In this document: in pieces, positions 259 to 62,491 of the stretch
Layout of the letters: each line of letters begins with the position of its first letter
Numbering within the stretch: the first letter of the stretch is position 1
DNA from: an uncultured Candidatus Saccharibacteria bacterium
Lineage (GTDB): Bacteria > Patescibacteriota > Minisyncoccia > UBA6257 > Colwellbacteraceae
Direction: 5' to 3'
Length of the DNA stretch: 64,000 bases
NCBI GenBank assembly: GCA_964360065.1
Contig: CAYHTW010000002.1
Span: forward strand, 2,251 to 66,250
Notes under the pieces: model-generated
The model's database searches: none
Told to the model about the DNA's origin: nothing
Seen by the model: only the letters and a program-made list of their open reading frames with translations
Translations under genes and position numbers: made by a program

Positions 259-365
259 CGGCTAACGAGGAAGGAAAATGGTCCGCCGTTAAGGCAGACC
301 ATTTTCTCCGAGTGACGACGCAACACAGGGTTTTAATACCCTTTATTGCAAAGTATTCTAGATAT

Positions 366-641
366 TTATTGGACAGCCTCCTTGAGGAGTTTGCCAGCTC
401 TAAACTTAGGAGCGATCTTAGCGGCTATCTGAATCTTCTCGCCAGTCTTTGGGTTGATGCCAGCCCTGGCAGCCCTCTTCACCACCTTAAAGGTGCCGAA
501 GCCAGTTACAGCGACTTCCTCGCCTTTACTGAGGCTCTTTACGATAGCATCGAAAAGACCTTCTACCGCCAATTCAGCTTGCTTCTTGGTCTCCAAGCCA
601 GCAGCGCTCATTACAGCTTCGACTAAATCTTGTTTCTTCAT
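366..641 (-). CDS. hup: HU family DNA-binding protein (start taken at MKKQDL rather than the longer ORF start)
   Basis: MKKQDLVEAV...GFGTFKVVKRAARAGINPKTGEKIQIAAK is a typical HU/IHF fold; ATG at 641. Confidence 0.85.
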   Translation of the reverse strand: MKKQDLVEAVMSAAGLETKKQAELAVEGLFDAIVKSLSKGEEVAVTGFGTFKVVKRAARAGINPKTGEKIQIAAKIAPKFRAGKLLKEAVQ

Positions 642-722
642 AATATTATTGTCTATAAATGTCTTCTTCCTCGACCTTTTAACTATGGGTAGATTATAGC
701 AAACAAGCGGGTTCAGGAGCAA

Positions 723-2246
723 TTACCTGGCATATTCAACAGCCCTGATCTCTCGGATGACATTAACTTTGATTTCTCCAGGGTACTTGAGCTCTGATTC
801 AATCTTAATAGCAATATCGCGAGCTAGTTGAAGGGCTTTAAAGTCATCAATCTTCTCGGGAACCACGAAAACACGCAGTTCACGACCCGCCGAGACGGCA
901 TAACACTCTTTGACTCCAGGGAAACTTGTGGCAATTTTTTCCAAGTCTTCCAGGCGCTTAACATAATTTTCCATGGTTCCACGTCTCGCACCTGGTCTGC
1001 CAGCCGATAAAACGTCTGCTGCGGTGACAATAAAAGACTCTGGACTAGCAAAAGGATATTCCTCATGGTGGGACTGCATAGCGGCTATAATGGCGTCACT
1101 AATGCCATATTTCTTAAGAATTTTCCTACCTAAATCAACGTGGGTACCAGCAACTTCGTGGTCTATAGCCTTACCAATGTCATGTAAGAGTGCTCCGGCT
1201 TTGGAGACTTCAACGTCGGCGCCAAGCTCGGCCGCGATCATACCGGAAATGTGAGCCATCTCCAAGGAGTGGGTCAAGACATTCTGTCCAAAACTGGTTC
1301 TGAAATTAAGCCGACCAAGCAACTGAATAATTTCTTTAGGTAAATTGTAGATGCCTACCTCGTAAGCGGCCTCTTCCCCGATTTCTTCCATTCTTTTTTC
1401 CATCTCGGCTTTAGCCTCTTCAACCTTTTCTTCAATCTTAGCGGGTTGAATTCTGCCGTCTTTAATAAGCTTCTCCAGCGTGAGACGAGCTATCTCGCGG
1501 CGTAGGGGGTCGAAAGAAGAAATAATAAGAGTATTAGGGCTCTCGTCTATGATGAGTTCTGTGCCAGTCAGTCTTTCTAAGGTTCTGATATTCCTGCCCT
1601 CACGGCCTATAATCTTACCTTTCAGATCCTCCGAGGGCAGAGTGTAAGCTGAGGTAGTTAAATCTGAGACATGTGTACGGGCATAGCGCTGGATGGCTGT
1701 AGTAATTACATCTAACCCTTTCTTTTCTACCTCTTCCTTTCTTTCGCGGGAGAGTTTTTGAATCATACTGGTCAACTCCTCCTTATGCCTGTCCTGTATT
1801 TCCTCTATAAGCTTGTTTTTAGCTTGTTCCGGAGTCAGCCCGCTGATTTTAGACAGCTCACCTTTCACCTGATCTCTCAAAAGGTCAACTGCCACACCAG
1901 CTTCTTCAAGTCTTTTGGATTCTTCGGAAAGCTTACTGGTTCCAGCCCGAAGCTCTTTTTCCAGACTACTAAGCTCGTCTTCTTTATTAACAAGTCTTCC
2001 CTCAACCTTATCCAGAGAGGATTTGCGTTCTTTTTCTTCCTTCTTCACTTCGTCGAGAAGTGAGTTGGCTTTGTTTTTGGCATCAAGAACAATATCCTGA
2101 GCCTCATTCTTAGCTTGAGAAAGATTTTCTTTTATTTTGTTTTCTAAGGAATTAGCCCGTCGGCTCGCTATTTGCTCTCGAACGAAGTAACCTATCGCTG
2201 CTCCTAAAATCGCTAAACCTGCCAGCACTAATGGTTGGTATGTCAT
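723..2246 (-). CDS. rny: Ribonuclease Y (N-terminal TM anchor, KH domain, HD domain)
   Basis: N-terminal hydrophobic helix, coiled-coil region, KH motif GKIIGREGRNIRTLE, HD motif HSLEMAHISG...LLHDIGK. Confidence 0.85.
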   Translation of the reverse strand: MTYQPLVLAGLAILGAAIGYFVREQIASRRANSLENKIKENLSQAKNEAQDIVLDAKNKANSLLDEVKKEEKERKSSLDKVEGRLVNKEDELSSLEKELRAGTSKLSEESKRLEEAGVAVDLLRDQVKGELSKISGLTPEQAKNKLIEEIQDRHKEELTSMIQKLSRERKEEVEKKGLDVITTAIQRYARTHVSDLTTSAYTLPSEDLKGKIIGREGRNIRTLERLTGTELIIDESPNTLIISSFDPLRREIARLTLEKLIKDGRIQPAKIEEKVEEAKAEMEKRMEEIGEEAAYEVGIYNLPKEIIQLLGRLNFRTSFGQNVLTHSLEMAHISGMIAAELGADVEVSKAGALLHDIGKAIDHEVAGTHVDLGRKILKKYGISDAIIAAMQSHHEEYPFASPESFIVTAADVLSAGRPGARRGTMENYVKRLEDLEKIATSFPGVKECYAVSAGRELRVFVVPEKIDDFKALQLARDIAIKIESELKYPGEIKVNVIREIRAVEYAR

Positions 2247-2370
2247 AGTTAAAGTAAATGAATATATTTCTCATTGGACTTTTAACATGATAAGCCAGTG
2301 CCCCATGGCTTGTCAAAAAAGCCCAGATGAGGTTAGGGTAGCCAGCGTAACCAAGTGTCTTACAAAGGTT

Positions 2371-3117
2371 CTAAGAGAGGCTCCAACGGGAGAAAATGAG
2401 GATGATGAGAGATAGAATTATAGCGGTGGCTATCTCCCAGCGTAAAGTTTTATCGGCAATAGTGTCCAACTTATAAGCCATAAGGATGTCATTAACTATA
2501 AAAACACCAGTAGTGACTATAATTGAAGCTGAAGAGGAAGAAAGGGGTAGCAACTCCAAGCCCCAGGCCAGCTCCACCACAATAAGAGAGGAAACCACTG
2601 AAACTAGTATTTGTCCGTTACGCGACCCATCTGATAAAAGAATATAGAGTTCCTTGAAGAGGAATAAAGAGAAGAAAAACAGCCCCACTTGTGAAGCTAG
2701 AGAAGCACTAGAGAAGTAGAGATAAACTCCAATAAAGAAAATCATGGAGTAAAGAAGCTGAGTGGTTTCTTTTCTCCTTATAAAAAGCAGGTCTTTAACC
2801 CCCACTAGCAGATACATCAGCACTCCTAAAGAGAAAGCAAAAAGCGCCTCCAAAGACCCGAGATCAGGGAAAAGGAAACAGTAAGCGAGAAGTGTAAAAG
2901 AAACTATGAGAAATTTGAAGCTCTGCGATATAGGACGAAAATAGGCGTAAGCAAAGAATAGTACTACTGCTAGTCCTGCCCAAAAACCTCCAGCAGATCT
3001 AAGCCAGTAAGCGGAGATAGCGAAGAGAAAAGACTCAAGCGCTAATCTTAACGTCTGATTCCTCGAAACTGATGCGAATACGACTGCCATCTTTAATATT
3101 TCCTCTGATAATACCAT
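2371..3117 (-). CDS. Polytopic membrane protein of unknown function (start uncertain; the annotated start overlaps clpB 3' end by 83 nt)
   Basis: Multiple hydrophobic helices and no recognisable motif. An alternative non-ATG start is possible. Confidence 0.4.
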   Translation of the reverse strand: MVLSEEILKMAVVFASVSRNQTLRLALESFLFAISAYWLRSAGGFWAGLAVVLFFAYAYFRPISQSFKFLIVSFTLLAYCFLFPDLGSLEALFAFSLGVLMYLLVGVKDLLFIRRKETTQLLYSMIFFIGVYLYFSSASLASQVGLFFFSLFLFKELYILLSDGSRNGQILVSVVSSLIVVELAWGLELLPLSSSSASIIVTTGVFIVNDILMAYKLDTIADKTLRWEIATAIILSLIILIFSRWSLS

Positions 3118-5674
3118 CGGCCAGCTTGTCCAAAATTGCTTTCTGGACTAGGCGTTTAATGGGACGGGCCCCATATTCCGGACTAAAGCCATTCTCTACA
3201 ATGTACTTTTTGAGTGATGGTTCGATAGTTACGGCAATACCTTTTTCTTTAAGCTTTTCTTTAACATCATTAAACTGGATATCCACTATCTGACCGATAT
3301 CATGTTTATTAAGCGGATGAAAAATCACAATGTCATCAATTCTGTTTAAGAACTCCGGCCTGAATTGGGATTTTAGGGCGTTGTCTAATCTTAGTTTATA
3401 ACCCTTCTCTTCACTCTCCGCTTGAGCAACGGATGTAGTCACAAAGCCGAGTTTAGCCATTTCTTTGGAGATTTCACTGCCGACGTTGGAGGTCATAATT
3501 ATGATGACGTTCTTAAAATTGACAGTCTTCCCCTTACCATCGGTCAGACGGCCGTTGTCCAGCACTTGAAGTAAGATATTAAAAACTTCCTGGTGAGCTT
3601 TTTCTATTTCATCGAAAAGAATGAGACTGTATGGGCGGTGACGAACTATCTCGGTAAGCTGTCCCCCTTCTTCGTAACCAACATAGCCCGGAGGAGAACC
3701 GATAAGACGGGATACTGAGTGACGTTCCATATATTCAGACATATCTATACGAATAAGAGACTTTTCGTCGTCAAATATAAAGTGAGACAAGGCTTTGGCG
3801 AGCTCTGTCTTGCCCACTCCGGTAGGGCCAAGGAACATAAACGATCCCAAAGGGCGATCAACTGGAGCTAAGCCTGCCCTAGCACGCCTTAAGGAGTTGG
3901 CTACTGCTTTAATAGCCTCGTCCTGGCCTACCACTCTTTCTCGGAGAGCTTCTTCAATACGCACTAATTTCTCCGATTCGGATTCCATAATGTTAGATAC
4001 AGGGATGCCGGTCCAACGGGAGACGATACGAGCAATATCTTCTTTATTGACACCTTCTCTCACAAAATAGTTCTTAGTTTTCTTTTTATCGGAAGAAAAA
4101 TATTTTTTCTCGTAGAGTTCGTACTCCTTTTTGGCAGCAGGCATCTCGCCGTAAATAATCTGAGCTACCCGCTCCAAATTATTTTCTCTCTCGGCAATGT
4201 CTTTAGCGCGCCTTAAACCATCAACCTTTTCGCGAAGATTGTTCAGTTTCTCAAAAATCATTTTCTCAGCCTGCCATTCGGTAGTAAGTTCTTCGTTTCT
4301 GTCCTTGATTAATTTAAGGGTTTTATCTATTTCTTTAACACGCTTAGAAGTCTTGGTTTCTCCCCCTTCGTTTAGCAGAGATGTCTTTTCAACTTCCATA
4401 GAAGTGATTTCCTTACGCAGCTTATCAATCTCGGCAGGCAGGCTTTCCATTTCAATCTTCCTCATAGCAGCGGCTTCATCTATGACATCAACTGCCTTAT
4501 CAGGTAAGAATCTGTCAGTAATATAGCGAGCTGATAAATTGACTGAGGCAATGACGGCTTCGTCATTAATACGGAGGCCATGATGAATCTCGTATTTTTC
4601 TTTAAGACCCCTTAGGATAGTTACGCTGTCTTCTAGAGACGGCTCCTCTACCATAACCGGCTGGAATCTCCTTTCTAAGGCCGGATCTTTCTCAATATGT
4701 CTCTGATATTCACGGGTAGTGGTGGCACCAATAGCATGCAGCTCGCCTCTGGCAAGAGCAGGCTTCAAAAGATTAGAAGCATCCACGGCTCCCTCGGCGG
4801 CACCGGCGCCCACAATCATGTGAATCTCGTCTATAAAAAGAATGATGTTGCCTGAAGAATTTTGTATCTCCTTAATGAAGGCTTTGAGTCTGTCCTCAAA
4901 CTCACCCCTGAACTTAGTGCCCGCGATTAAAGCCCCTAAATCAAGCATGATAACTTCCTTACCCTTTAAAGACTCTGGCACATCACCACTCAACATTTTC
5001 TGAGCCAAACCCTCAACGATGGCAGTTTTACCAACACCAGGCTCACCGATAAGCACAGGATTATTTTTAGTTCTGCGGGAAAGAATTTGAATCAGCCTCT
5101 TTAGCTCTTCGTCGCGGCCGATAACTGGGTCTAATTTTCCGGCTGCGGCTCTGGTAGTAAGATTAATGGCGTATTTTTCCAGAACCTGGAATTTACTTTC
5201 TGGAGTTTCATCGGTAATCCTAGTACTACCCCTTAACTTGGAAAAAGCCCGCAAGGCGCTTTCTCTCTTTAAACCGGATTGCTCAAGAACAGCCCTGGCT
5301 TGAGAATCAACATCCAGAATAGAGAGAAATAAATGTTCGCAAGAGATAAACTCGTCACGATTGTCGGTAGCGACTTTCCCGGCCCGATCAATAACTTTCA
5401 TTACTTCTTGAGAAAGATAAAGCTGGCCTACGGAATTCGCGGAAAAAACTTTAGGAAGTTTTTTAAGTTCGTTATTAATGTCCTTATCCAGCTTCTCAAT
5501 ATTAACTCCCGTAATCTTGATCACTGGGCTCACTAGAGAACTGGAATCATTAATAAGAGCGGAAAGAAGATGTAATGCCTTGAACTCACCGTGACTCTGG
5601 GCTGTAGCCAAGTCCTGGGCGTTTTGGAGCGCCTCTTGAGATTTAATTGTAAAGTTTTTATCAAAAGATCTCAT
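3035..5674 (-). CDS. clpB: ATP-dependent chaperone ClpB (two AAA+ modules with a middle coiled-coil domain)
   Basis: Clp N-domain, Walker [10 protein letters not shown] and GPTGVGKTE, a long coiled-coil insert, and an 879 aa length. Confidence 0.9.
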
Positions 5675-5718
5675 TATGATTAATTATACCTTTACTCTCT
5701 CGTTACTACTTACCAAAC

Positions 5719-7026
5719 TTAGATCCTTTCTTCAAGGGTCACCTTGAAATTGAGTGTCTCTGGCCCCCGGAGTATCTTCACATTAATAACGTCCCCAATG
5801 TTGTAGTTTTGGATAATATCGCCCAACTGATGATCTGAATTAATTTTCGTGTCACCAAATTGAGTTATAATATCTCCGCTTTGAATGCCCGCCTTAGAGG
5901 CCGGAGAGTTTGGTACGATAGCTGTATTCGCACCATCGGAACTAATTAATGCGCCTTCAGCAACCGCAAGTTTTTTGGACTTAGCGAGATCTGCGTCAAT
6001 AGTGATATATCTCACCCCAAGATATGGAACTTTAATGGAGCCTGTGGAGCTGACAGACTTAATATCTTTCTTGGCCCGATTGATAGGAATTGCAAAGCCG
6101 ATACTTTGAGCACCTGAAGCAATCGCGGTATTAATCCCTATAACCTCACCTTTGAGGTTTAGTAGTGGTCCCCCGGAATTGCCCGGATTAATGGCCGCGT
6201 CAGTTTGAATCACTCCCTGTAGGGTCTCTGTGCCAAATTGACTGCCAGAGGCGGTGATGGTTCTTGATAGACCTGAAATAACGCCGACGGAAACCGTGTT
6301 GCTAAATTCTCCCAAAGAATAGCCGATAGCTATAGCCGTTTGACCAAGTTTAATAGAATCCGAGTTTCCTATCTTAGCGGCGGTTAATCCGATACCATCA
6401 ATTTTAATAATAGCCAAGTCCTGGAAGGGGTCTCTAGCTAAAACTTTAGCTGGGTATTTTTTGCCATTATAGGTAATCACTGTATATTCGGCGGCGGTGT
6501 CTGCTACCACGTGTTTATTGGTAAGAACCAAGCCGTCGCTAGAAACTATAAAGCCGCTACCGCCGCCAATCTTTTGAAGTTGAGTGCCTTTCTGACAAGG
6601 CTGATAGTATTGAATGCCTCCTCCACCAAAAAGATTCTGTAAATCTGGAGAAAGATTAGAGAATGGGTCGTAGGGACACTGCTCAATAATGGGTATATTT
6701 TTAGAGATAATTATAGAAACAACGCTTTTAGAAGAATCATCAACTGCTTTTATTATCGCCTGTTCATAATCAACCGTGGGTGCATAAATAGTAACTGGGG
6801 TGTTTGCAGGAACAGGGGAAGGGTCAGGGGCTGGTTTAGGTGTGGGGGCTGGAGTAGGGACGGGGACAGGGCTGGCGTTTGGTTTAGGAGTAAGAAAGCT
6901 GGGGATGTATTTATTAAATAAATCTTGGATAAAGTTAGCTGAAGCTTGGGGGGAATTCAAAACTGACCCCAAAACAGCACCGAGGATAAAAATCGCGAAA
7001 ATAAAACCTGAAATTCTTTTATTCAT
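5719..7026 (-). CDS. HtrA/DegP-family trypsin-like serine protease with C-terminal PDZ domain and a Pro/Thr-rich N-terminal linker
   Basis: Catalytic triad motifs TNKHVV, DLAIIKI and GNSGGPL; a PDZ-like C-terminus; a signal-anchor. Confidence 0.85.
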   Translation of the reverse strand: MNKRISGFIFAIFILGAVLGSVLNSPQASANFIQDLFNKYIPSFLTPKPNASPVPVPTPAPTPKPAPDPSPVPANTPVTIYAPTVDYEQAIIKAVDDSSKSVVSIIISKNIPIIEQCPYDPFSNLSPDLQNLFGGGGIQYYQPCQKGTQLQKIGGGSGFIVSSDGLVLTNKHVVADTAAEYTVITYNGKKYPAKVLARDPFQDLAIIKIDGIGLTAAKIGNSDSIKLGQTAIAIGYSLGEFSNTVSVGVISGLSRTITASGSQFGTETLQGVIQTDAAINPGNSGGPLLNLKGEVIGINTAIASGAQSIGFAIPINRAKKDIKSVSSTGSIKVPYLGVRYITIDADLAKSKKLAVAEGALISSDGANTAIVPNSPASKAGIQSGDIITQFGDTKINSDHQLGDIIQNYNIGDVINVKILRGPETLNFKVTLEERI

Positions 7027-8309
7027 TTGAATAAAATTATAATTCTTTTTATGGTTTGGTCAAGCTGATTATATGTCACTGGTCTGCCTAAAGAAATACG
7101 AATACTGGAGCGGGAACGATTCTCTTTGTGCCCTAGGGCCGCTACTACATAAGAGTCTTCAAAACTCTTAGTGGAGCAAGCCGAACCAGATGACACTGCC
7201 ACGCCCGCCAAATCCATCTTTATAACGAGTTCCTGCAAGTCTCCCATCTCGGGGAAATATACATTGAGGTTGTTGGGCAATCTATGAACGTCTGACGAAG
7301 AACCGTTTAGCTCCAGGCGTGGTAAACTTGCTTTTAGCTTTTCCCAGAAGTAGTCCCGAAGAGAGGCAATGCGCGAAGACTCTTTATCTTTGTTTTTTAA
7401 AATCAGCTCCACGGCCTTGCCTAAGCCAACAATGGCTGGGACGTTTTCCGTGCCGGCTCGCAGACCGTACTCATGAGCCCCGCCAGTTATGATTGGGATT
7501 ATGAATGATGAATTATGAATTATGGACATTGTTTTTGATTCTTTATTCCTTATCCCTAATTCATTACTCTGGCGCACATACAGCACTCCGACTCCCTTTG
7601 GACCGTATATTTTATGGCCTGAAATAGTCATCATATCTACTCCCAGATGATCCACGTTACAATCCAAATATTGGAAGGCTTGAACAGCATCGGTGTGAAG
7701 CAATGGATACCTCTTGCCGCCTCTAAATTTTTTAATCACTTCGGCAATCTCTTTGATTGGCTCAACCGTGCCAATAACATTAGAGGCGAAGATAATAGAA
7801 ACCAAAACCGTGTTTTCGGTCAAATTGTTCTTTAGTGACTCTATATTTATAAAGCCCTCTTTATCAACCGGCAGATAAATTACTTCTACGCCTTCCTTTT
7901 CTAAATCTTTTGCTGTGTCTAAAACCGACTCGTGTTCAATGGAAGAAACAATAATACGAGGAATTACGAATTGTGAATTACGAATTGTGCTTTTATTTTT
8001 AACTCTTAACTCATAATTCCTTATTCCTTTTATACTCCCGCGAATAGCCAGGTTGTTAGCTTCGCTCGCAGAACCCGTAAAGATTATTTCATTAAACTTG
8101 GCTCCCAAGCTCCCCGCAACTATTTCTCTAGCTACATCGATTCCAGCCTGGGCACGCTGGCCAAAAGAATGCAGAGAACCGGCATTGCCGAAATCCACCG
8201 AAAAGTAAGGCTTCATAGCCTCTAAGACGCGTTTATCCATCGGCGAAGAAGCCGAGTAATCCAGATAAATTTCTTTTCTCTTCTTAGAAGAGTGTGTTAA
8301 CTTCTTCAA
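7023..8309 (-). CDS. Cysteine desulfurase (class V aminotransferase, IscS/NifS-like) carrying two in-frame AT-rich insertions
   Basis: PLP-lysine motif SGHKIYGPKG and active-site SSGSACS. Compared with canonical IscS spacing there are two extra segments of about 13-16 aa. Confidence 0.8.
   Translation of the reverse strand: MKKLTHSSKKRKEIYLDYSASSPMDKRVLEAMKPYFSVDFGNAGSLHSFGQRAQAGIDVAREIVAGSLGAKFNEIIFTGSASEANNLAIRGSIKGIRNYELRVKNKSTIRNSQFVIPRIIVSSIEHESVLDTAKDLEKEGVEVIYLPVDKEGFINIESLKNNLTENTVLVSIIFASNVIGTVEPIKEIAEVIKKFRGGKRYPLLHTDAVQAFQYLDCNVDHLGVDMMTISGHKIYGPKGVGVLYVRQSNELGIRNKESKTMSIIHNSSFIIPIITGGAHEYGLRAGTENVPAIVGLGKAVELILKNKDKESSRIASLRDYFWEKLKASLPRLELNGSSSDVHRLPNNLNVYFPEMGDLQELVIKMDLAGVAVSSGSACSTKSFEDSYVVAALGHKENRSRSSIRISLGRPVTYNQLDQTIKRIIILFK
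7494..7568. repeat. AT-rich palindromic mini-insertion (copy 1) inside the cysteine desulfurase ORF, kept in frame
   Basis: gaattatgaattatg...ttattccttatccctaattcattac with inverted termini; related to the copy at 7959-8030. Confidence 0.5.
7959..8030. repeat. AT-rich palindromic mini-insertion (copy 2) inside the cysteine desulfurase ORF, kept in frame
   Basis: aggaattacgaattgtgaattacgaattgtg...ctcataattccttattcc; the termini are inverted repeats (aggaattac / ataattcct). Confidence 0.5.
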
Positions 8310-8853
8310 CTTCGTCTTTAAACGTTAAAACGACTTTATTTAATTTATCACTCCACTTTTCCGGAACCATCAAGTACCCTTGATGCTTGGCCAGTTCGTA
8401 TAAATCACGGGTTATAAGAACATCGTGGAGACAATACTTCTCTAATGATTCCCAGTCGCCCGCATTATAGAAACGAACGGCATCCAAACCATGGTTCGTT
8501 TTGCCGATCCCCAGGTTAGCCTTAGCTAAAAGGTCTAAACCAATACGCCTGCCATAAGATTTTTCTATTTCTTCCAGTAAATCCAAGGTCGGTAGAGCAG
8601 TGACCTTGAAATTAAAATACTTGTCTAAAATCGGCATATCAAAACGGTTAATGGCAAAACCTATAACGAGACCGGCCTCCTGCAACATAGGAGAGAGTTT
8701 TTTGATCTTATCTTCCCTGAAAGAGAAAAACTCTTGCTTGTCGTAAGAATAAACACAAACCAAAGAGGCCTCTAAGTCTTTGAGATTTTTTTTACCTCCG
8801 ACGTCCATGAAGGTATTTTTAGTTTCAATGTCTATAACTAACCTGTCTTTCAT
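8284..8853 (-). CDS. RNase H-like 3'-5' exonuclease (DEDDy-type, PolB-exonuclease-like)
   Basis: Exo motifs LVIDIET, GFAINRFDMPIL and YCLHDVLITRDLY. Confidence 0.55.
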   Translation of the reverse strand: MKDRLVIDIETKNTFMDVGGKKNLKDLEASLVCVYSYDKQEFFSFREDKIKKLSPMLQEAGLVIGFAINRFDMPILDKYFNFKVTALPTLDLLEEIEKSYGRRIGLDLLAKANLGIGKTNHGLDAVRFYNAGDWESLEKYCLHDVLITRDLYELAKHQGYLMVPEKWSDKLNKVVLTFKDEVEEVNTLF

Positions 8854-8858
8854 GTCTC

Positions 8859-9365
8859 TTAAATATGTTTATCCGCCACCGATGAGGCTGCATAGCTTTC
8901 GGGCTTGGTGCGAACATCAAAGTTATTAGCTCTAATCATCCCGACGAGTTCCTGAATCATAACTTTAGTTTCACCGTTCTGGCCTATATCAATGTGGATT
9001 TCGAAACTCCAACCCAAGGCTGGTCCGCCTTTGGCTGGAAATTGAGGATATTGTTTCAACATTGCTAATATTTCTTTAGCTACATCCAAAGACATTAAAG
9101 CTTCACGAATCATCCTGTCTCTTAAAGTGTGGAACCCTGTGAGCTCTTCTCTCCTCCAGAAATACCTGCCGCCATTACCTATGCGGTGCACTACCACAGC
9201 AGTGACAAAGTCGGCCTTGGTCATACCATAAAGCTGAGAGTCGGTACCTATCATTACTTTATAGGCATAATCGGGAGCCTGATTCATAAAATCTATGACT
9301 TCACCAACTACCTCATCGGCAGTGAGTTTAATTCCTCCATAGCTGTTGAACTTAAGATTATCCAT
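8859..9365 (-). CDS. DUF458/YkuK-like RNase H-fold protein
   Basis: MIGTDSQ motif and a length and pattern typical of the YkuK family. Confidence 0.45.
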   Translation of the reverse strand: MDNLKFNSYGGIKLTADEVVGEVIDFMNQAPDYAYKVMIGTDSQLYGMTKADFVTAVVVHRIGNGGRYFWRREELTGFHTLRDRMIREALMSLDVAKEILAMLKQYPQFPAKGGPALGWSFEIHIDIGQNGETKVMIQELVGMIRANNFDVRTKPESYAASSVADKHI

Positions 9366-9435
9366 AAAAGGAAACGATACCAGTCACTATAGATTAAATA
9401 TAAAAGTCGGGCAAATCACCTGAAGAAGTCAGCAG

Positions 9436-10753
9436 TTACCTGAGTCTATAAGCTTTTTTCAGACGAACAAGCTCACGCTTGACCCCTATTTCATTCGTAC
9501 CTTTTAAGTGGACTCTGACTGATGCTTCTGTGTTGGAGGCGCGGATATTAACCCAAACTTGGTTATTATAAAAACTAAAACCGTCTTGCCGTGAAACTTT
9601 GAACTTCGAAGCCGGGTAAAGTTTTCTGACTCTGGAAATAAGACCATCTGGATCACTGGTTTTCAGATTCAGACCAACGCCAGTGTAAACATATGGCAAG
9701 TTGTCCACCCACTCGGAGAGTGAAAGTTTTTGAGATTTCATTTTAGAAATTTGGTTAATAACAAAAATCGCTGTCATGATTCCAGAATCTGCGAAGAAAA
9801 AGTCTTTGAAGTAATAATGGCCGGACTGCTCGCCCGCAAACTCAGTTTTTCTGCGTCTCATTTCTTTTTTAATGAAATAATGGCCGGTACGAGTTTCGTT
9901 TACCTTTATACCAGGCTTTAACCATCGCAAAGGCACCGAGCCTAGCGCAGTGTCCACGAGATGCGGCTCCTTAAAAAGAGGTGAAAGTAGAATAAAGATG
10001 ATGCCCGCATCTAGGGCCCTGCCTTCATTATCAACAAAGAAAATTCTATCTCCGTCTGCATCAAAGACAGCTCCAAAATCTGCCTTGTTGTTCAATACTG
10101 TACGCTGCAGTTGTTCTTTGGCATCCGGTGCTATTGGATTCGGACCGTGGGCTGGGAAATTACCATCGGGCTTAGCATTGATAAATATGGCTTTGATTTT
10201 TTTATGCTTATTTTTCTTTTGGCCGAAAAGTTCTTTCAGAACCGGGCCAGTCGAACCATTAGAAGAATCGAAGACAACCATTAGGGGGTTTTTAACTTCC
10301 AGAAACTTACTCAAAAAACTAACGTAACTTTTTGTATATCGCATAGATTTCTTCTCCGTTAACAGGATCGCCTTTTTCTTTAACTAATTTCAGACCGTTG
10401 TATTGTTTCGGATTGTGAGAAGCTGTAACCATCATTCCTCCGTCTGATTTCAAGTGGTTAACTAAAAATGACATTTCTGGAGTAGTAATAAGCCCCGATA
10501 AATGTAGTTTACATTTAGGGCTAGCCTTTTTAATTGATCTTATTAAGGTCCGGTAAAGTGAAACAGAACTAAGACGTGGGTCGTGACCCACCACCAAGCT
10601 CCCCATCTTATTACGTTTTTTATTTCCATTGAGAAGAAGCTTGGTGGCAACTAGGCCTAGTTTACCAATGACTTCTTCGTTAATATTTTTGGGGTAGATC
10701 CCTCTCACGTCGTAAACTCCAAAAATGTTGGATTTATTAAATTTGTTTTTCAT
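9436..10753 (-). pseudogene. Phosphomannomutase/phosphoglucomutase split by a frameshift into 144 aa N-terminal (10319-10753) and 302 aa C-terminal (9436-10344) ORFs
   Basis: The N-terminal fragment carries the active-site TASHNP motif; the C-terminal fragment carries the metal-binding DADGDR motif and domains II-IV. The two frames overlap by 26 nt at an A5 run. Confidence 0.6.
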
Positions 10754-10844: not shown

Positions 10845-12923
10845 ATGGCTAAGAAAAAACACCAGAATAAAAGACGGGAAGAAACTTTTCACATCATCCA
10901 TCCAGAAGCTAAGTCCAGTATCGTAGCCGTTTTCTCACTGGGATTAGCCGTGGTCTTTGTTTTATCTGGATTCCACGGGGCCGGACCCGTTGGAGAAATG
11001 ATTTTTAATGGGCTCACAAAACTGATGGGCTTGGGTTATTACCTGTTGCCGGCGACTCTCATTGCTATTAGTATCTCTCTTTTCACAAAAGACGCCAAAA
11101 GAATTGTTACGGCCACATTATTTGGCGGATTATTTGTGCTACTTTCCAGCCTCGGCATAATAGACGTTCTTGACCCCGGCCAAGGCGGCTGGCTCGGAGA
11201 AATACTAGGCAGCCTCAATTCCCTCTTCGGTTACTGGGCGGCGCTCACTATTAACTTCACAATATTGCTGGCGGCTCTCATCGCTACCTTCAACACTCCG
11301 ATTAAATTAAGTAAGGGACTGCTCTTCGGTGGTGGCGAGAAAAACGAAAAAGACAGGAAACCAGCCGAAGAACCCAAGTTAAGTTTACCAGAAAGCCCGG
11401 GCATAACCCCTATAGTTGGAGAACATACGGAAGCTACGGAATACAAGGAGAATAAAGAGAAAGAAAATAGAAAGGAGGATAAAGAAACATTTAAGCCTCG
11501 GCACGCTATTAAAACTAATTATGTTTTTCCGCCGCTTAGCCTACTCAAATCAACGAGTGAGAAACCAACCGTAGGAGATCTGAAGGCTAATGCCAATATT
11601 ATCAAAAGAACTTTGGAGAGTTTCGGTATGCCTGTAGAAATGGGAGAAATAACGATTGGGCCCAAAGTAACACGATACACTTTAAAGCCAGCTGAAGGAG
11701 TGAAGTTGTCCAGAATTACGGCCCTGAACCAAGACTTGGCGCTGGCCCTTGCTACCCACCCTATCAGAATAGAAGCTCCTATTCCCGGCAAGTCACTGGT
11801 GGGCATTGAGGTGCCAAATAAAGTAGGCAGTATTGTGCGCTTGGGAGGCTTGCTGAATTATTCGGAGTTCGCCAATTCTCCGTCACTCTGTTTCCCTTTG
11901 GGGCGCGATGTCTCTGGCGACCCGATATTTACTAACCTCTCTAAAATGCCCCACTTGCTCATCGCTGGCTCCACTGGGAGCGGTAAATCAGTAGCGATAC
12001 ACTCTCTTTTAATTTCTCTGCTTTATAAGAACTCACCCGAAACTCTAAGACTAATATTGATAGACCCGAAGCGCGTTGAACTTTCGGTTTATGAAGGTTT
12101 GCCACATTTGGTTTCATCCGTTATTACTGATGGCAAAAAAGCCGTGGCAGCTCTGAGGTTCGGCGTAAACGAGATGGAAAGACGCTACGAGGTTTTACTA
12201 AAAGCTGGTTGCCGCGATATTACGAGTTACAACGACAAAAAGAAAGAAGACCTAATGCCATACCTTGTTATTGTAATTGATGAGCTAGCTGATTTAATGA
12301 TCTCACACGGAAGAGATGTAGAGGGGCTTTCTGTTAGGCTGGCTCAAATGGCTAGGGCCACGGGTATACACTTAATAGTGTCAACGCAGCGACCGTCGGT
12401 AGAAGTCATTACCGGATTGATTAAAGCCAACATCACTTCCAGAATCGCCCTGCAAGTCGCCAGTCAGATTGATTCCAGAACTATTTTAGATATGGCTGGG
12501 GCCGAGAAACTTTTGGGAGGCGGCGATATGCTTTTCATCTCCGGAGAAATCTCCAAACCCAGGAGAATCCAAGGAACTTACGTAACTGATGAAGAAATTA
12601 AAAAAGTAGCCGACTTTATAACTCAAAATAATCTAGAAAATCCGGAAAACCTAAGCGGAGATAGAGAAGAAGGAATCCCGGAAAATAACGGCAAAGAAAC
12701 TTTCAGTAATTATATGGGAAGCGATGACGATGACGATCTGTTTGATGAAGCCCTGGAGGTAGTTAAAGAGGCTCAAAAGGCTTCGGCCTCCCTCCTTCAA
12801 AGAAGGCTTAAAGTCGGTTATGCTAGGGCTGCTAGGCTTCTGGATATAATGGAGTCTAAAAACCTGATTGGCCCCGGCGAAGGAGCTAAGCCTAGAGAGG
12901 TATATATAACTAAAGATGAATAG
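10845..12923 (+). CDS. ftsK: DNA translocase FtsK/SpoIIIE
   Basis: N-terminal TM helices, Walker A AGSTGSGKS, and a C-terminal winged-helix gamma-like domain. Confidence 0.9.
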   Translation: MAKKKHQNKRREETFHIIHPEAKSSIVAVFSLGLAVVFVLSGFHGAGPVGEMIFNGLTKLMGLGYYLLPATLIAISISLFTKDAKRIVTATLFGGLFVLLSSLGIIDVLDPGQGGWLGEILGSLNSLFGYWAALTINFTILLAALIATFNTPIKLSKGLLFGGGEKNEKDRKPAEEPKLSLPESPGITPIVGEHTEATEYKENKEKENRKEDKETFKPRHAIKTNYVFPPLSLLKSTSEKPTVGDLKANANIIKRTLESFGMPVEMGEITIGPKVTRYTLKPAEGVKLSRITALNQDLALALATHPIRIEAPIPGKSLVGIEVPNKVGSIVRLGGLLNYSEFANSPSLCFPLGRDVSGDPIFTNLSKMPHLLIAGSTGSGKSVAIHSLLISLLYKNSPETLRLILIDPKRVELSVYEGLPHLVSSVITDGKKAVAALRFGVNEMERRYEVLLKAGCRDITSYNDKKKEDLMPYLVIVIDELADLMISHGRDVEGLSVRLAQMARATGIHLIVSTQRPSVEVITGLIKANITSRIALQVASQIDSRTILDMAGAEKLLGGGDMLFISGEISKPRRIQGTYVTDEEIKKVADFITQNNLENPENLSGDREEGIPENNGKETFSNYMGSDDDDDLFDEALEVVKEAQKASASLLQRRLKVGYARAARLLDIMESKNLIGPGEGAKPREVYITKDE

Positions 12924-16023: not shown

Positions 16024-16030
16024 CAAAATA

Positions 16031-16064
16031 AAATCACCCAGCCTAGGCTGGGTGATTTTATTTT
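16031..16064. terminator. Bidirectional rho-independent terminator (aaaatcacccagcc-ta-ggctgggtgatttt) between tRNA-Arg (+) and cspA (-)
   Basis: Perfect 14 bp stem flanked by A-run and T-run. Confidence 0.7.
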
Positions 16065-62399: not shown

Positions 62400-62424
62400 T
62401 TGATAGGTATTATTAACTTTTACG

Positions 62425-62470
62425 AACCCAGCGCCACTTTTAACATATTGCTTAAAAGTGGCGCTGGGTT
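62425..62470 (+). terminator. Rho-independent terminator (17 bp stem aacccagcgccactttt / aaaagtggcgctgggtt, 12 nt loop)
   Basis: Perfect long stem followed by tttat. Confidence 0.6.
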
Positions 62471-62491
62471 TATAAATGAATCGTACTTTCT

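Follow-up and report, generated by a model that had tools for sequence, protein, structure and literature searches.

The window analysed here is a stretch of 64,000 nucleotides (nt) of contig CAYHTW010000002.1 (positions 2,251 to 66,250; assembly GCA_964360065.1) from an uncultured Candidatus Saccharibacteria bacterium of the Patescibacteria. It carries an intact gene for a cysteine desulfurase, the reading frame of which stays open through two short palindromic segments, hereafter elements A and B (Table 1). An initial annotation had noticed the two segments as extra peptides of the enzyme and had likened them to the Rickettsia palindromic elements (RPEs); the observation itself is confirmed, while the interpretation as elements of the RPE type is supported in part.

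The host gene is readily identified. Its product matches the Pfam family Aminotran_5 (PF00266; E 3.6e-66), which has the class-V aminotransferase fold, and its closest solved relatives are the type-I cysteine desulfurases IscS, NifS and NFS1 (E 1e-70 to 1e-76). The lysine binding pyridoxal phosphate (K233) and the catalytic Cys378 are invariant alignment columns. An AlphaFold2 model built with 121 sequences reaches a mean predicted local distance difference test (pLDDT) value of 87.8 and, in Foldseek comparisons with NFS1 and IscS, template modelling scores of 0.79-0.84 (normalised to the query). The presence of two extra peptide segments holds, as the alignments to solved structures are gapped precisely at residues ~103-117 and ~255-270. 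The core of the model exceeds a pLDDT of 90 and values of ~50 or below are found in the inserts only, those under 50 being at residues 107-113 (element A) and at 251-255 and 260-265 (element B).

By alignment, A replaces the segment equivalent to residues 85-96 of the Escherichia coli IscS and B the segment equivalent to residues 220-230. In the E. coli enzyme, the substitutions F89E, R220E, R223E and R225E/E227R weaken the binding of ThiI, CyaY or IscX (PMC2854127). Hence, as anticipated in the initial annotation, both sites lie in surface loops, which would be the equivalents of the partner-binding surface of the E. coli protein. A 90-residue fragment of the same gene from another assembly (P0150), with an identical N-terminus, stops at ...ANNLAIR and is thus one codon short of the insert region; its end point suggests that assemblies break at the element.

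Table 1. Features of the desulfurase gene, in window coordinates
Feature	Position	Strand	Basis
Host gene, type-I (IscS/NifS-like) cysteine desulfurase, 428 residues, intact	7023-8309	minus	Pfam and solved-structure matches
Element A, encodes G95-P117 (GIRNYELRVKNKSTIRNSQFVIP)	7959-8027	minus	Inverted repeat, RNA fold, gap in sister contig L253
Element B, encodes ~N249-P272 (NELGIRNKESKTMSIIHNSSFIIP)	7494-7569	minus	Inverted repeats, RNA fold, gaps in sister contig L253
Mosaic recombination tract, residues 118-171, directly 3' of A in the coding direction	7797-7958	minus	Shift in identity to homologues P0001 and P0007

Hairpins built of seven-nucleotide units

At the DNA level, A and B are related to each other: they share a stretch of 34 nt at 74% identity and another of 23 nt at 78% identity. 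The motif AATTCRTAATTC, with at most one mismatch, has 7 occurrences in the 64 kb, where 1.53 would be expected; none of 100 shuffles reaches this number, and six of the seven occurrences are inside A and B. A second motif that had been considered common to both segments, ttattcctta, is exact in B, but A has ttattccttt in its place. The inverted-repeat termini are found as described, with aggaattac at 7959-7967 and ataattcct at 8013-8021. The arms of A (7959-7985 and 7995-8021) are 27 nt long and 74% complementary, those of B (7503-7520 and 7552-7569) 18 nt long and 78% complementary. Five inverted repeats of at least 18 nt within 60 nt can be found in the window; A and B are the only intragenic ones, the other three being intergenic. 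Secondary-structure prediction folds both segments into RNA hairpins. For A (7959-8027), the sense strand reaches -18.8 kcal/mol (z -5.9) and the antisense strand -13.8 kcal/mol (z -3.8); for B (7495-7569), the z values are -2.7 (sense) and -3.3 (antisense). As single-stranded DNA, both elements fold weakly (z -0.5 to -3.2).

The hairpins have a regular construction. On the coding strand, the arms consist of 7-nt units, (GAATTNN)n on the 5' side and (NNAATTC)n on the 3' side, and in each unit GAATT pairs with AATTC over five bases, leaving two bases free. In A, the 5' arm GGAATAA-GGAATTA-TGAGTTA-AGAGTTA is followed by an A-rich loop and the 3' arm ACAATTC-GTAATTC-ACAATTC-GTAATTC. In B, the 5' arm is (TGAATTA)-GGGATAA-GGAATAA-AGAATCA and the 3' arm ATAATTC-ATAATTC-ATCATTC-ATAATCC. 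The initial annotation was right about the hairpins but lacked these tandem units, which resemble those of STRR sequences (short repetitive sequences that are repeated in tandem). For identical bases, the autocorrelation over 25 inserts from nine genes amounts to 0.455 (lag 7) and 0.382 (lag 14), compared with 0.243 and 0.246, respectively, in the remaining sequence of these genes.

Whichever frame is read, a perfect array of such units runs into a stop codon, TGA on the 5' side and TAA on the 3' side. Coding copies differ at the free bases, with GGA, AGA or TCA replacing TGA and AAA, CAA or TCA replacing TAA, and their arms encode peptides of the types ...(I)RN(Y/Q/K)E(L/S)G(I)... and ...IIHNS-x-FII... 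(x, a variable residue). As a unit of 7 nt is not divisible by 3, all frames yield the same cyclic peptide, which is why A and B are alike as peptides. Codon usage in the arms is strongly constrained: Phe is TTC in 17/17 cases (36% elsewhere; p 7.5e-8), Gly is GGA in 14/14 (28% elsewhere; p 4e-8), Ser is TCA in 76% (20% elsewhere; p 2e-9), His is CAT in 14/14 and Asn is AAT in 32/33. The arm codons are thus fixed by the unit, and therefore the conserved entity is the nucleotide pattern, the peptide being a by-product. Judging from the purging of stop codons, A and B are probably translated.

Inserts in homologues and probable recent gain in the window lineage

The best 120 homologues of the desulfurase (382-495 residues) all belong to Patescibacteria where an organism is named. 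By such names, and by those in the 90% cluster of the protein itself, the window falls in Patescibacteria, near Parcubacteria/Colwellbacteria. The length variation of the homologues is concentrated in four loops, located after AIRG91, FR198, YVR246 and ELNG336 (positions of the window protein). The AATT-type peptide motif occurs in 26/120, in some of them at three or four loops (e.g., P0018), and long inserts of different sequence can be found in many of the others. DNA of the inserts was available for eight insert-bearing genes, namely the window gene and seven homologues, and all 25 inserts in them fold as hairpins with a 7-nt periodicity. The sequence of the unit varies with the genome: in addition to GAATTNN, units of GGGTATN and of the GTTCTAG type (both in L247), ACGAATN (L249) and AATTGGT (L248) are observed, and the families of heptamer hairpins seem to be specific to the genome. 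Of the 3' arm of B, 28 nt recur without a mismatch in an element that L001 carries at another loop of this gene. The hairpin of the ACGAAT type in L249 is present twice in the desulfurase gene and twice in nearby intergenic DNA; members of this family (ATCAACGAATAACGAAT...ATTCGTTATTCGCTGAT), found at 9375-9444, 12778-12847 and 10262-10333 of that contig, include intergenic copies as well as one lying within the open frame of the desulfurase gene. That selection acts on the sense-strand mRNA was considered and rejected, as the antisense strand folds better in 17/25 inserts. In L002, a palindromic repeat with a CGATCG core (TTACTGTCCGATGTAACGATCGTTACGTTGGACAGTA) is found twice (9195-9291 and 9920-9959), in intergenic DNA adjoining the desulfurase gene.

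When a simple neighbour-joining tree is built from the conserved columns, empty loops, AATT-type inserts and other inserts are interleaved on it, and the seven homologues that form a clade with the window gene have no insert at any of the four loops. According to the initial annotation, an ancient lineage-specific insertion would be indicated if the genome held no additional copies and orthologues in unrelated lineages had the same extra loops. What is found agrees with this by half: other Patescibacteria do have inserts at the same loops, whereas the nearest relatives are empty, and a single ancient lineage-specific loop therefore does not fit.

Contig L253, from a sister genome, is collinear with positions 349-9429 of the window at 85-90% nt identity, and its ClpB protein is 94% identical. 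It lacks A, with a gap of 48 nt (window 7977-8024; 16 residues net), and it lacks B, with gaps of 17 nt (7561-7577) and 25 nt (7498-7522), i.e., 42 nt or 14 residues net. L253 has instead its own palindromic insert of 93 nt, also in frame (ATCCACCCACCTTTC...GGAAAGGTGGGAGGAT; 1135-1248 of the contig; -27.1 kcal/mol), in the N-terminal region, which is a fifth position in this gene. No other coding indel in the 9 kb is as large as the gap at A, the gap at B or the 93-nt insert. Most parsimoniously, A and B would have been gained in the window lineage after its split from the sister genome.

Directly downstream of A, the gene is mosaic (Table 1). The DNA of the window gene is 63.0% identical to that of P0001, otherwise its closest relative, inside residues 118-171 and 83.8% identical outside, whereas identity to P0007, from a different clade, is 90.1% inside and 61.9% outside. 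The tract is also apparent in a codon-level alignment and in a protein profile, and identity to L253 drops to 0.64-0.70 in it, compared with 0.82-0.95 around it. The P0001-type tract is common to three sister lineages (L253, L251 and L003), and the window lineage is therefore the recipient. The two codons immediately 5' of A also match P0007, and the tract may extend through A to ~8033. P0007 itself carries a different insert at the loop of A, so that the actual donor is an unsampled member of a P0007-related lineage. It seems probable that A arrived with foreign allelic DNA, or arose at a recombination junction, rather than transposing in place; such an origin would explain why no further copy is present in the surrounding 64 kb.

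With regard to the surroundings of the gene, the block comprising the desulfurase and an HtrA-like protease (5689-9429) is 78.9% identical to the sister genome at the DNA level, as against 86.4% for ClpB and the downstream DNA (349-5692); on this comparison, the desulfurase region would evolve or recombine faster than its neighbours. The phosphoglucomutase gene (9436-10753) consists of two overlapping open reading frames (ORFs), 10319-10753 for domain I and 9436-10344 for domains II-IV. The gene is also split in L003, L245 and L246 and is a single gene of 485 residues in L249; the split may be conserved, or else reflect a site of frameshifting. Six of the ten tRNA genes of the window are clustered at 15.5-18.6 kb. 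A perfect palindrome of 40 nt (16025-16064) directly follows tRNA-Arg(CCT), and an inverted repeat with arms of 25 nt, 92% complementary, lies between two ORFs at 62419-62476; both are probably terminators.

The family elsewhere and its enrichment in one gene

Copies of the family can be found far beyond the desulfurase. A scan of metagenomes for hairpins of the form GAATYAGGAATT, 8-38 nt, TAATTCRTAATTC gave at least 120 loci. Among the matches listed there are 124 distinct elements, of which 61 have no open frame among the six. The ORF around the others is shorter than 80 residues in 49 cases, 80-149 residues long in 5 and at least 150 residues long in 9. The long ORFs among these matches encode RecG, TsaD (two copies), a polymerase of the IMS/DinB type, a Mur ligase, a PMT_2 glycosyltransferase and another cysteine desulfurase. 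Further copies in frame are present in a fragment of MnmA (P0122) and in the phosphoglucomutase gene (PGM) beside the desulfurase in L246. When RecG, TsaD and the other host proteins were compared with the window by tblastn, no homologues were found by which to confirm the lineage of those hosts. Coding copies are always open, as opposed to the 61 of 124 closed in six frames, and translation is therefore indicated.

A scan of a genome collection for the 3' arm gave more than 120 loci, mostly perfect (AATTCRT)n arrays and hairpins. The hosts among the matches listed are Bacteroidota, Cyanobacteria, Ignavibacteria, Acidobacteriota, Chloroflexota, Lentisphaerota and others, and no copy from Patescibacteria is among them. 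The (AATTCGT)n and (AATTCAT)n arrays (L005-L124) are often paired with a complementary (GAATTAC)n array so as to form hairpins, and they are apparently mostly non-coding. Rfam has no family matching A and B, nor the 12 intergenic heptamer hairpins of other phyla that were submitted. The literature searches gave nothing relevant for the repeat sequences, including the arrays of other phyla, or for palindromic in-frame insertions in Patescibacteria, in line with the view of the initial annotation that such elements had not been described in this kind of genome. Regarding carriage by phages, 2.9 million viral contigs yielded one match. A profile of the element peptides, compared with a collection of 5.8 billion proteins, returned 25 weak and mostly short matches and missed the very desulfurases from which it was made, so that it is unfit for counting hosts, although it did lead to the MnmA fragment P0122.

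In the gene itself, the family is strongly over-represented. Across ~170 kb of DNA surrounding nine Patescibacteria copies of the gene, hairpins of the AATT type are confined to the desulfurase, apart from one in a PGM gene and one arm in a Wzy-like gene; these loci were selected for their desulfurase, and the adjacent gene, ClpB, serves as the sole control gene. The best 120 homologues of ClpB, from the same kinds of organisms, total 105,617 residues and are free of both arm motifs, and the coefficient of variation of length is 0.6%. For the desulfurase, the motif is present in 26 of the best 120, with 55 motif arms in 51,170 residues, and the coefficient of variation is 6.3%. The enrichment of hairpin inserts in the desulfurase gene is real.

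Origin of the inserts and comparison with known repeats

Taken together, these results favor the reading of A and B as copies, old and in part decayed, of a non-autonomous family of short hairpin repeats, recently gained and translated as loops, with a probability of roughly 0.6. The repeat would have a core of ~60-70 nt. A heptamer hairpin inserted inside a gene would keep the frame and be read through, and its survival there would depend on the free bases at the TGA/TAA positions being fixed as sense codons, which gives the peptides ...NYELGI... and ...IIHNSxFII.... The extra peptides (16 and 14 residues net) would most likely be passengers without a catalytic role that have replaced two surface loops. 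The repeats might spread by recombination between alleles or by means of a mobilising enzyme, and A would have come beside, possibly inside, a patch of ~160 nt imported by homologous recombination.

Several results weigh against this reading. The additional copies expected in the initial annotation were not found, as BLAST, motif scans, a heptamer scan and an inverted-repeat scan revealed no further A/B copy in the window. No target-site duplication is apparent relative to the empty sites of L253, nor relative to P0001 and P0004; the native loop codons are replaced and not merely interrupted, and there is no clean insertion boundary. No candidate for a mobilising gene or a transposase was noticed beside any copy, the ORFs of the window having been searched only partly against family libraries. 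A lineage can be assigned to only a minority of the metagenome copies. Finally, the enrichment in one gene is extreme, and such a bias is not what a purely random selfish element predicts.

The main rival is that the hairpins are cis-acting nucleic-acid elements kept by selection at fixed positions of the gene, acting perhaps in ribosome pausing or mRNA decay or as recombination-promoting DNA that would diversify the partner-binding surface, while families turn over and the structure stays. It is kept alive by the strong enrichment of the desulfurase gene compared with its neighbours and ClpB and by the retention of structure across families, all 25 inserts at the four loops being hairpins despite their different sequence families. 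The conservation of the arms at the codon level, the z of -5.9 of A as sense-strand RNA, the recombination tract beginning at A and the further palindromic insert in the same gene of L253 also speak for it. Nonetheless, a role of this kind is improbable. There is no consistent strand preference (the antisense strand being the better one in 17/25), which argues against selection on mRNA; the seven nearest homologues of the clade manage without an insert at any loop and with the gene intact; the family is present in unrelated genes and is mostly non-coding among the listed copies; and the folds of A and B as single-stranded DNA are weak. It can be speculated further, with about as little confidence, that heptamer hairpins are made or spread by an undescribed mechanism operating across phyla and are kept at four or five loops of the desulfurase because nucleic-acid structure acts there, either as recombination hotspots reshuffling the partner-binding surface or as translation or mRNA signals.

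Somewhat less probable than a cis-acting role is a local origin, in which replication slippage or template switching in AT-rich loop DNA would remake heptamer hairpins repeatedly, without any transfer of elements. That perfect (AATTCRT)n arrays and hairpins are found in many unrelated phyla does suggest a mutational process that acts repeatedly; slippage can extend tandem repeats such as the arms, and a target-site duplication is missing. However, near-identical arms, including the 28-nt identity, are found at different loops and in different genomes, and the same unit sequence occurs in unrelated host genes; furthermore, a change by one unit shifts the frame, which constrains growth inside a gene, and A adjoins imported DNA.

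Slightly less favored still are adaptive protein loops, specific to the lineage and selected as peptides, for instance as a new interaction surface in a reduced iron-sulphur machinery, the palindromy being incidental. Both inserts replace loops that bind ThiI, CyaY or IscX in the E. coli IscS, many Patescibacteria have comparable peptides at these loops, and the inserts preserve the frame and contain no stop codon. On the other hand, the arm codons are fixed far beyond what a peptide needs, and at one loop the inserts are wholly different between lineages and yet always palindromic. Their distribution on the tree is patchy, with the closest relatives lacking them, the inserts have low model confidence and no defined fold, and the same peptide is found in unrelated enzymes. 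As for a chance similarity of A and B in low-complexity AT-rich sequence, the segments are indeed short and AT-rich in a genome of 42-45% GC, but this explanation is already refuted by the excess of AATTCRTAATTC (7 against 1.53 expected, 0/100 shuffles, six of the seven in A and B), by the fact that no other long inverted repeat of the 64 kb lies inside a gene and by the recurrence of the family in homologues.

If A and B are repeats of such a family, in-frame palindromic repeats, best known from Rickettsia, are now found in Patescibacteria, another host-dependent lineage with reduced genomes, and the question arises as to what creates and moves heptamer hairpins. That one essential gene gathers inserts in most of 120 homologues and ClpB in none is not explained by random selfish insertion. 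On a practical level, the inserts inflate and fragment protein alignments and probably break assemblies, and some of the "extra loops" seen in the proteins of bacterial candidate phyla may be due to them.

Among known systems, the RPEs come first. As summarized in PMC10969869 (after Ogata et al., 2000), RPEs are palindromic, lie in frame in unrelated housekeeping genes at positions compatible with the fold, encode a conserved peptide and are also found in non-coding DNA; the same source gives a length of ~100-150 bp, ten Rickettsia-specific families and many dispersed copies per genome. Like them, A and B are palindromic and hairpin-forming (with arms 74-78% complementary) and have an open frame throughout, their surface positions are compatible with the fold, and members of their family are in frame in RecG, TsaD, the IMS polymerase, the Mur ligase, PMT_2, MnmA and PGM as well as in non-coding DNA. 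The resemblance claimed in the initial annotation thus stands as regards in-frame hairpin repeats in several unrelated genes. It does not extend to size (62-75 nt, or 42-48 nt net), to the construction from 7-nt tandem units or to the host, a member of the Patescibacteria; A and B are set apart from RPEs by length and host and not by a comparison of consensus sequences. Unlike for RPEs with their many dispersed copies, the 64-kb window has no copies besides A and B, and one host gene is strongly over-represented in their family.

Other small inverted repeats are more distant. Miniature transposable elements with inverted repeats (MITEs) and repetitive extragenic palindromes (REPs) are small non-autonomous elements that are occasionally intragenic, with in-frame fusions known for ERIC, BOX and QMITE1 (PMC10969869, PMC3733652, PMC3184786); REPs are palindromes of 20-40 nt with a GTAG or CGTC head and are accompanied in the genome by a gene for a REP-associated tyrosine transposase (PMC3733652). 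In contrast to MITEs, A and B are not flanked by a target-site duplication, and in contrast to REPs, their arms begin with GGAAT or GGGAT, end with ATTCC or ATCCC and have no GTAG or CGTC head. Heptamer-periodic arms, with five paired and two free bases, are not a described feature of MITEs or REPs. A spliced or bypassed intervening sequence was also considered and rejected, as coding copies are always in frame, the TGA/TAA positions are sense codons and there is no Rfam match.

The construction of A and B is closest to that of STRR sequences, which consist of tandem 7-bp units able to form hairpins and are located between genes or in the RNase P RNA gene of heterocystous cyanobacteria (PMC2670836). 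A and B likewise consist of tandem 7-nt units (0.455 and 0.382 at lags 7 and 14), with complementary arrays that form hairpins, and AATTCRT heptamer arrays are found in contigs of Nostoc, Calothrix and Microcystis. Unlike the non-coding STRR sequences of cyanobacteria, A and B are in the coding sequence of a member of the Patescibacteria, are predicted to be translated and are purged of stop codons. The classical STRR units (e.g., CCCCAGT) also differ in sequence from the units of A and B. By size and host, and apparently also by sequence, the family of A and B belongs to neither RPEs nor STRR sequences; in combining the behavior of the former with the construction of the latter, it joins two phenomena that have so far been treated separately.

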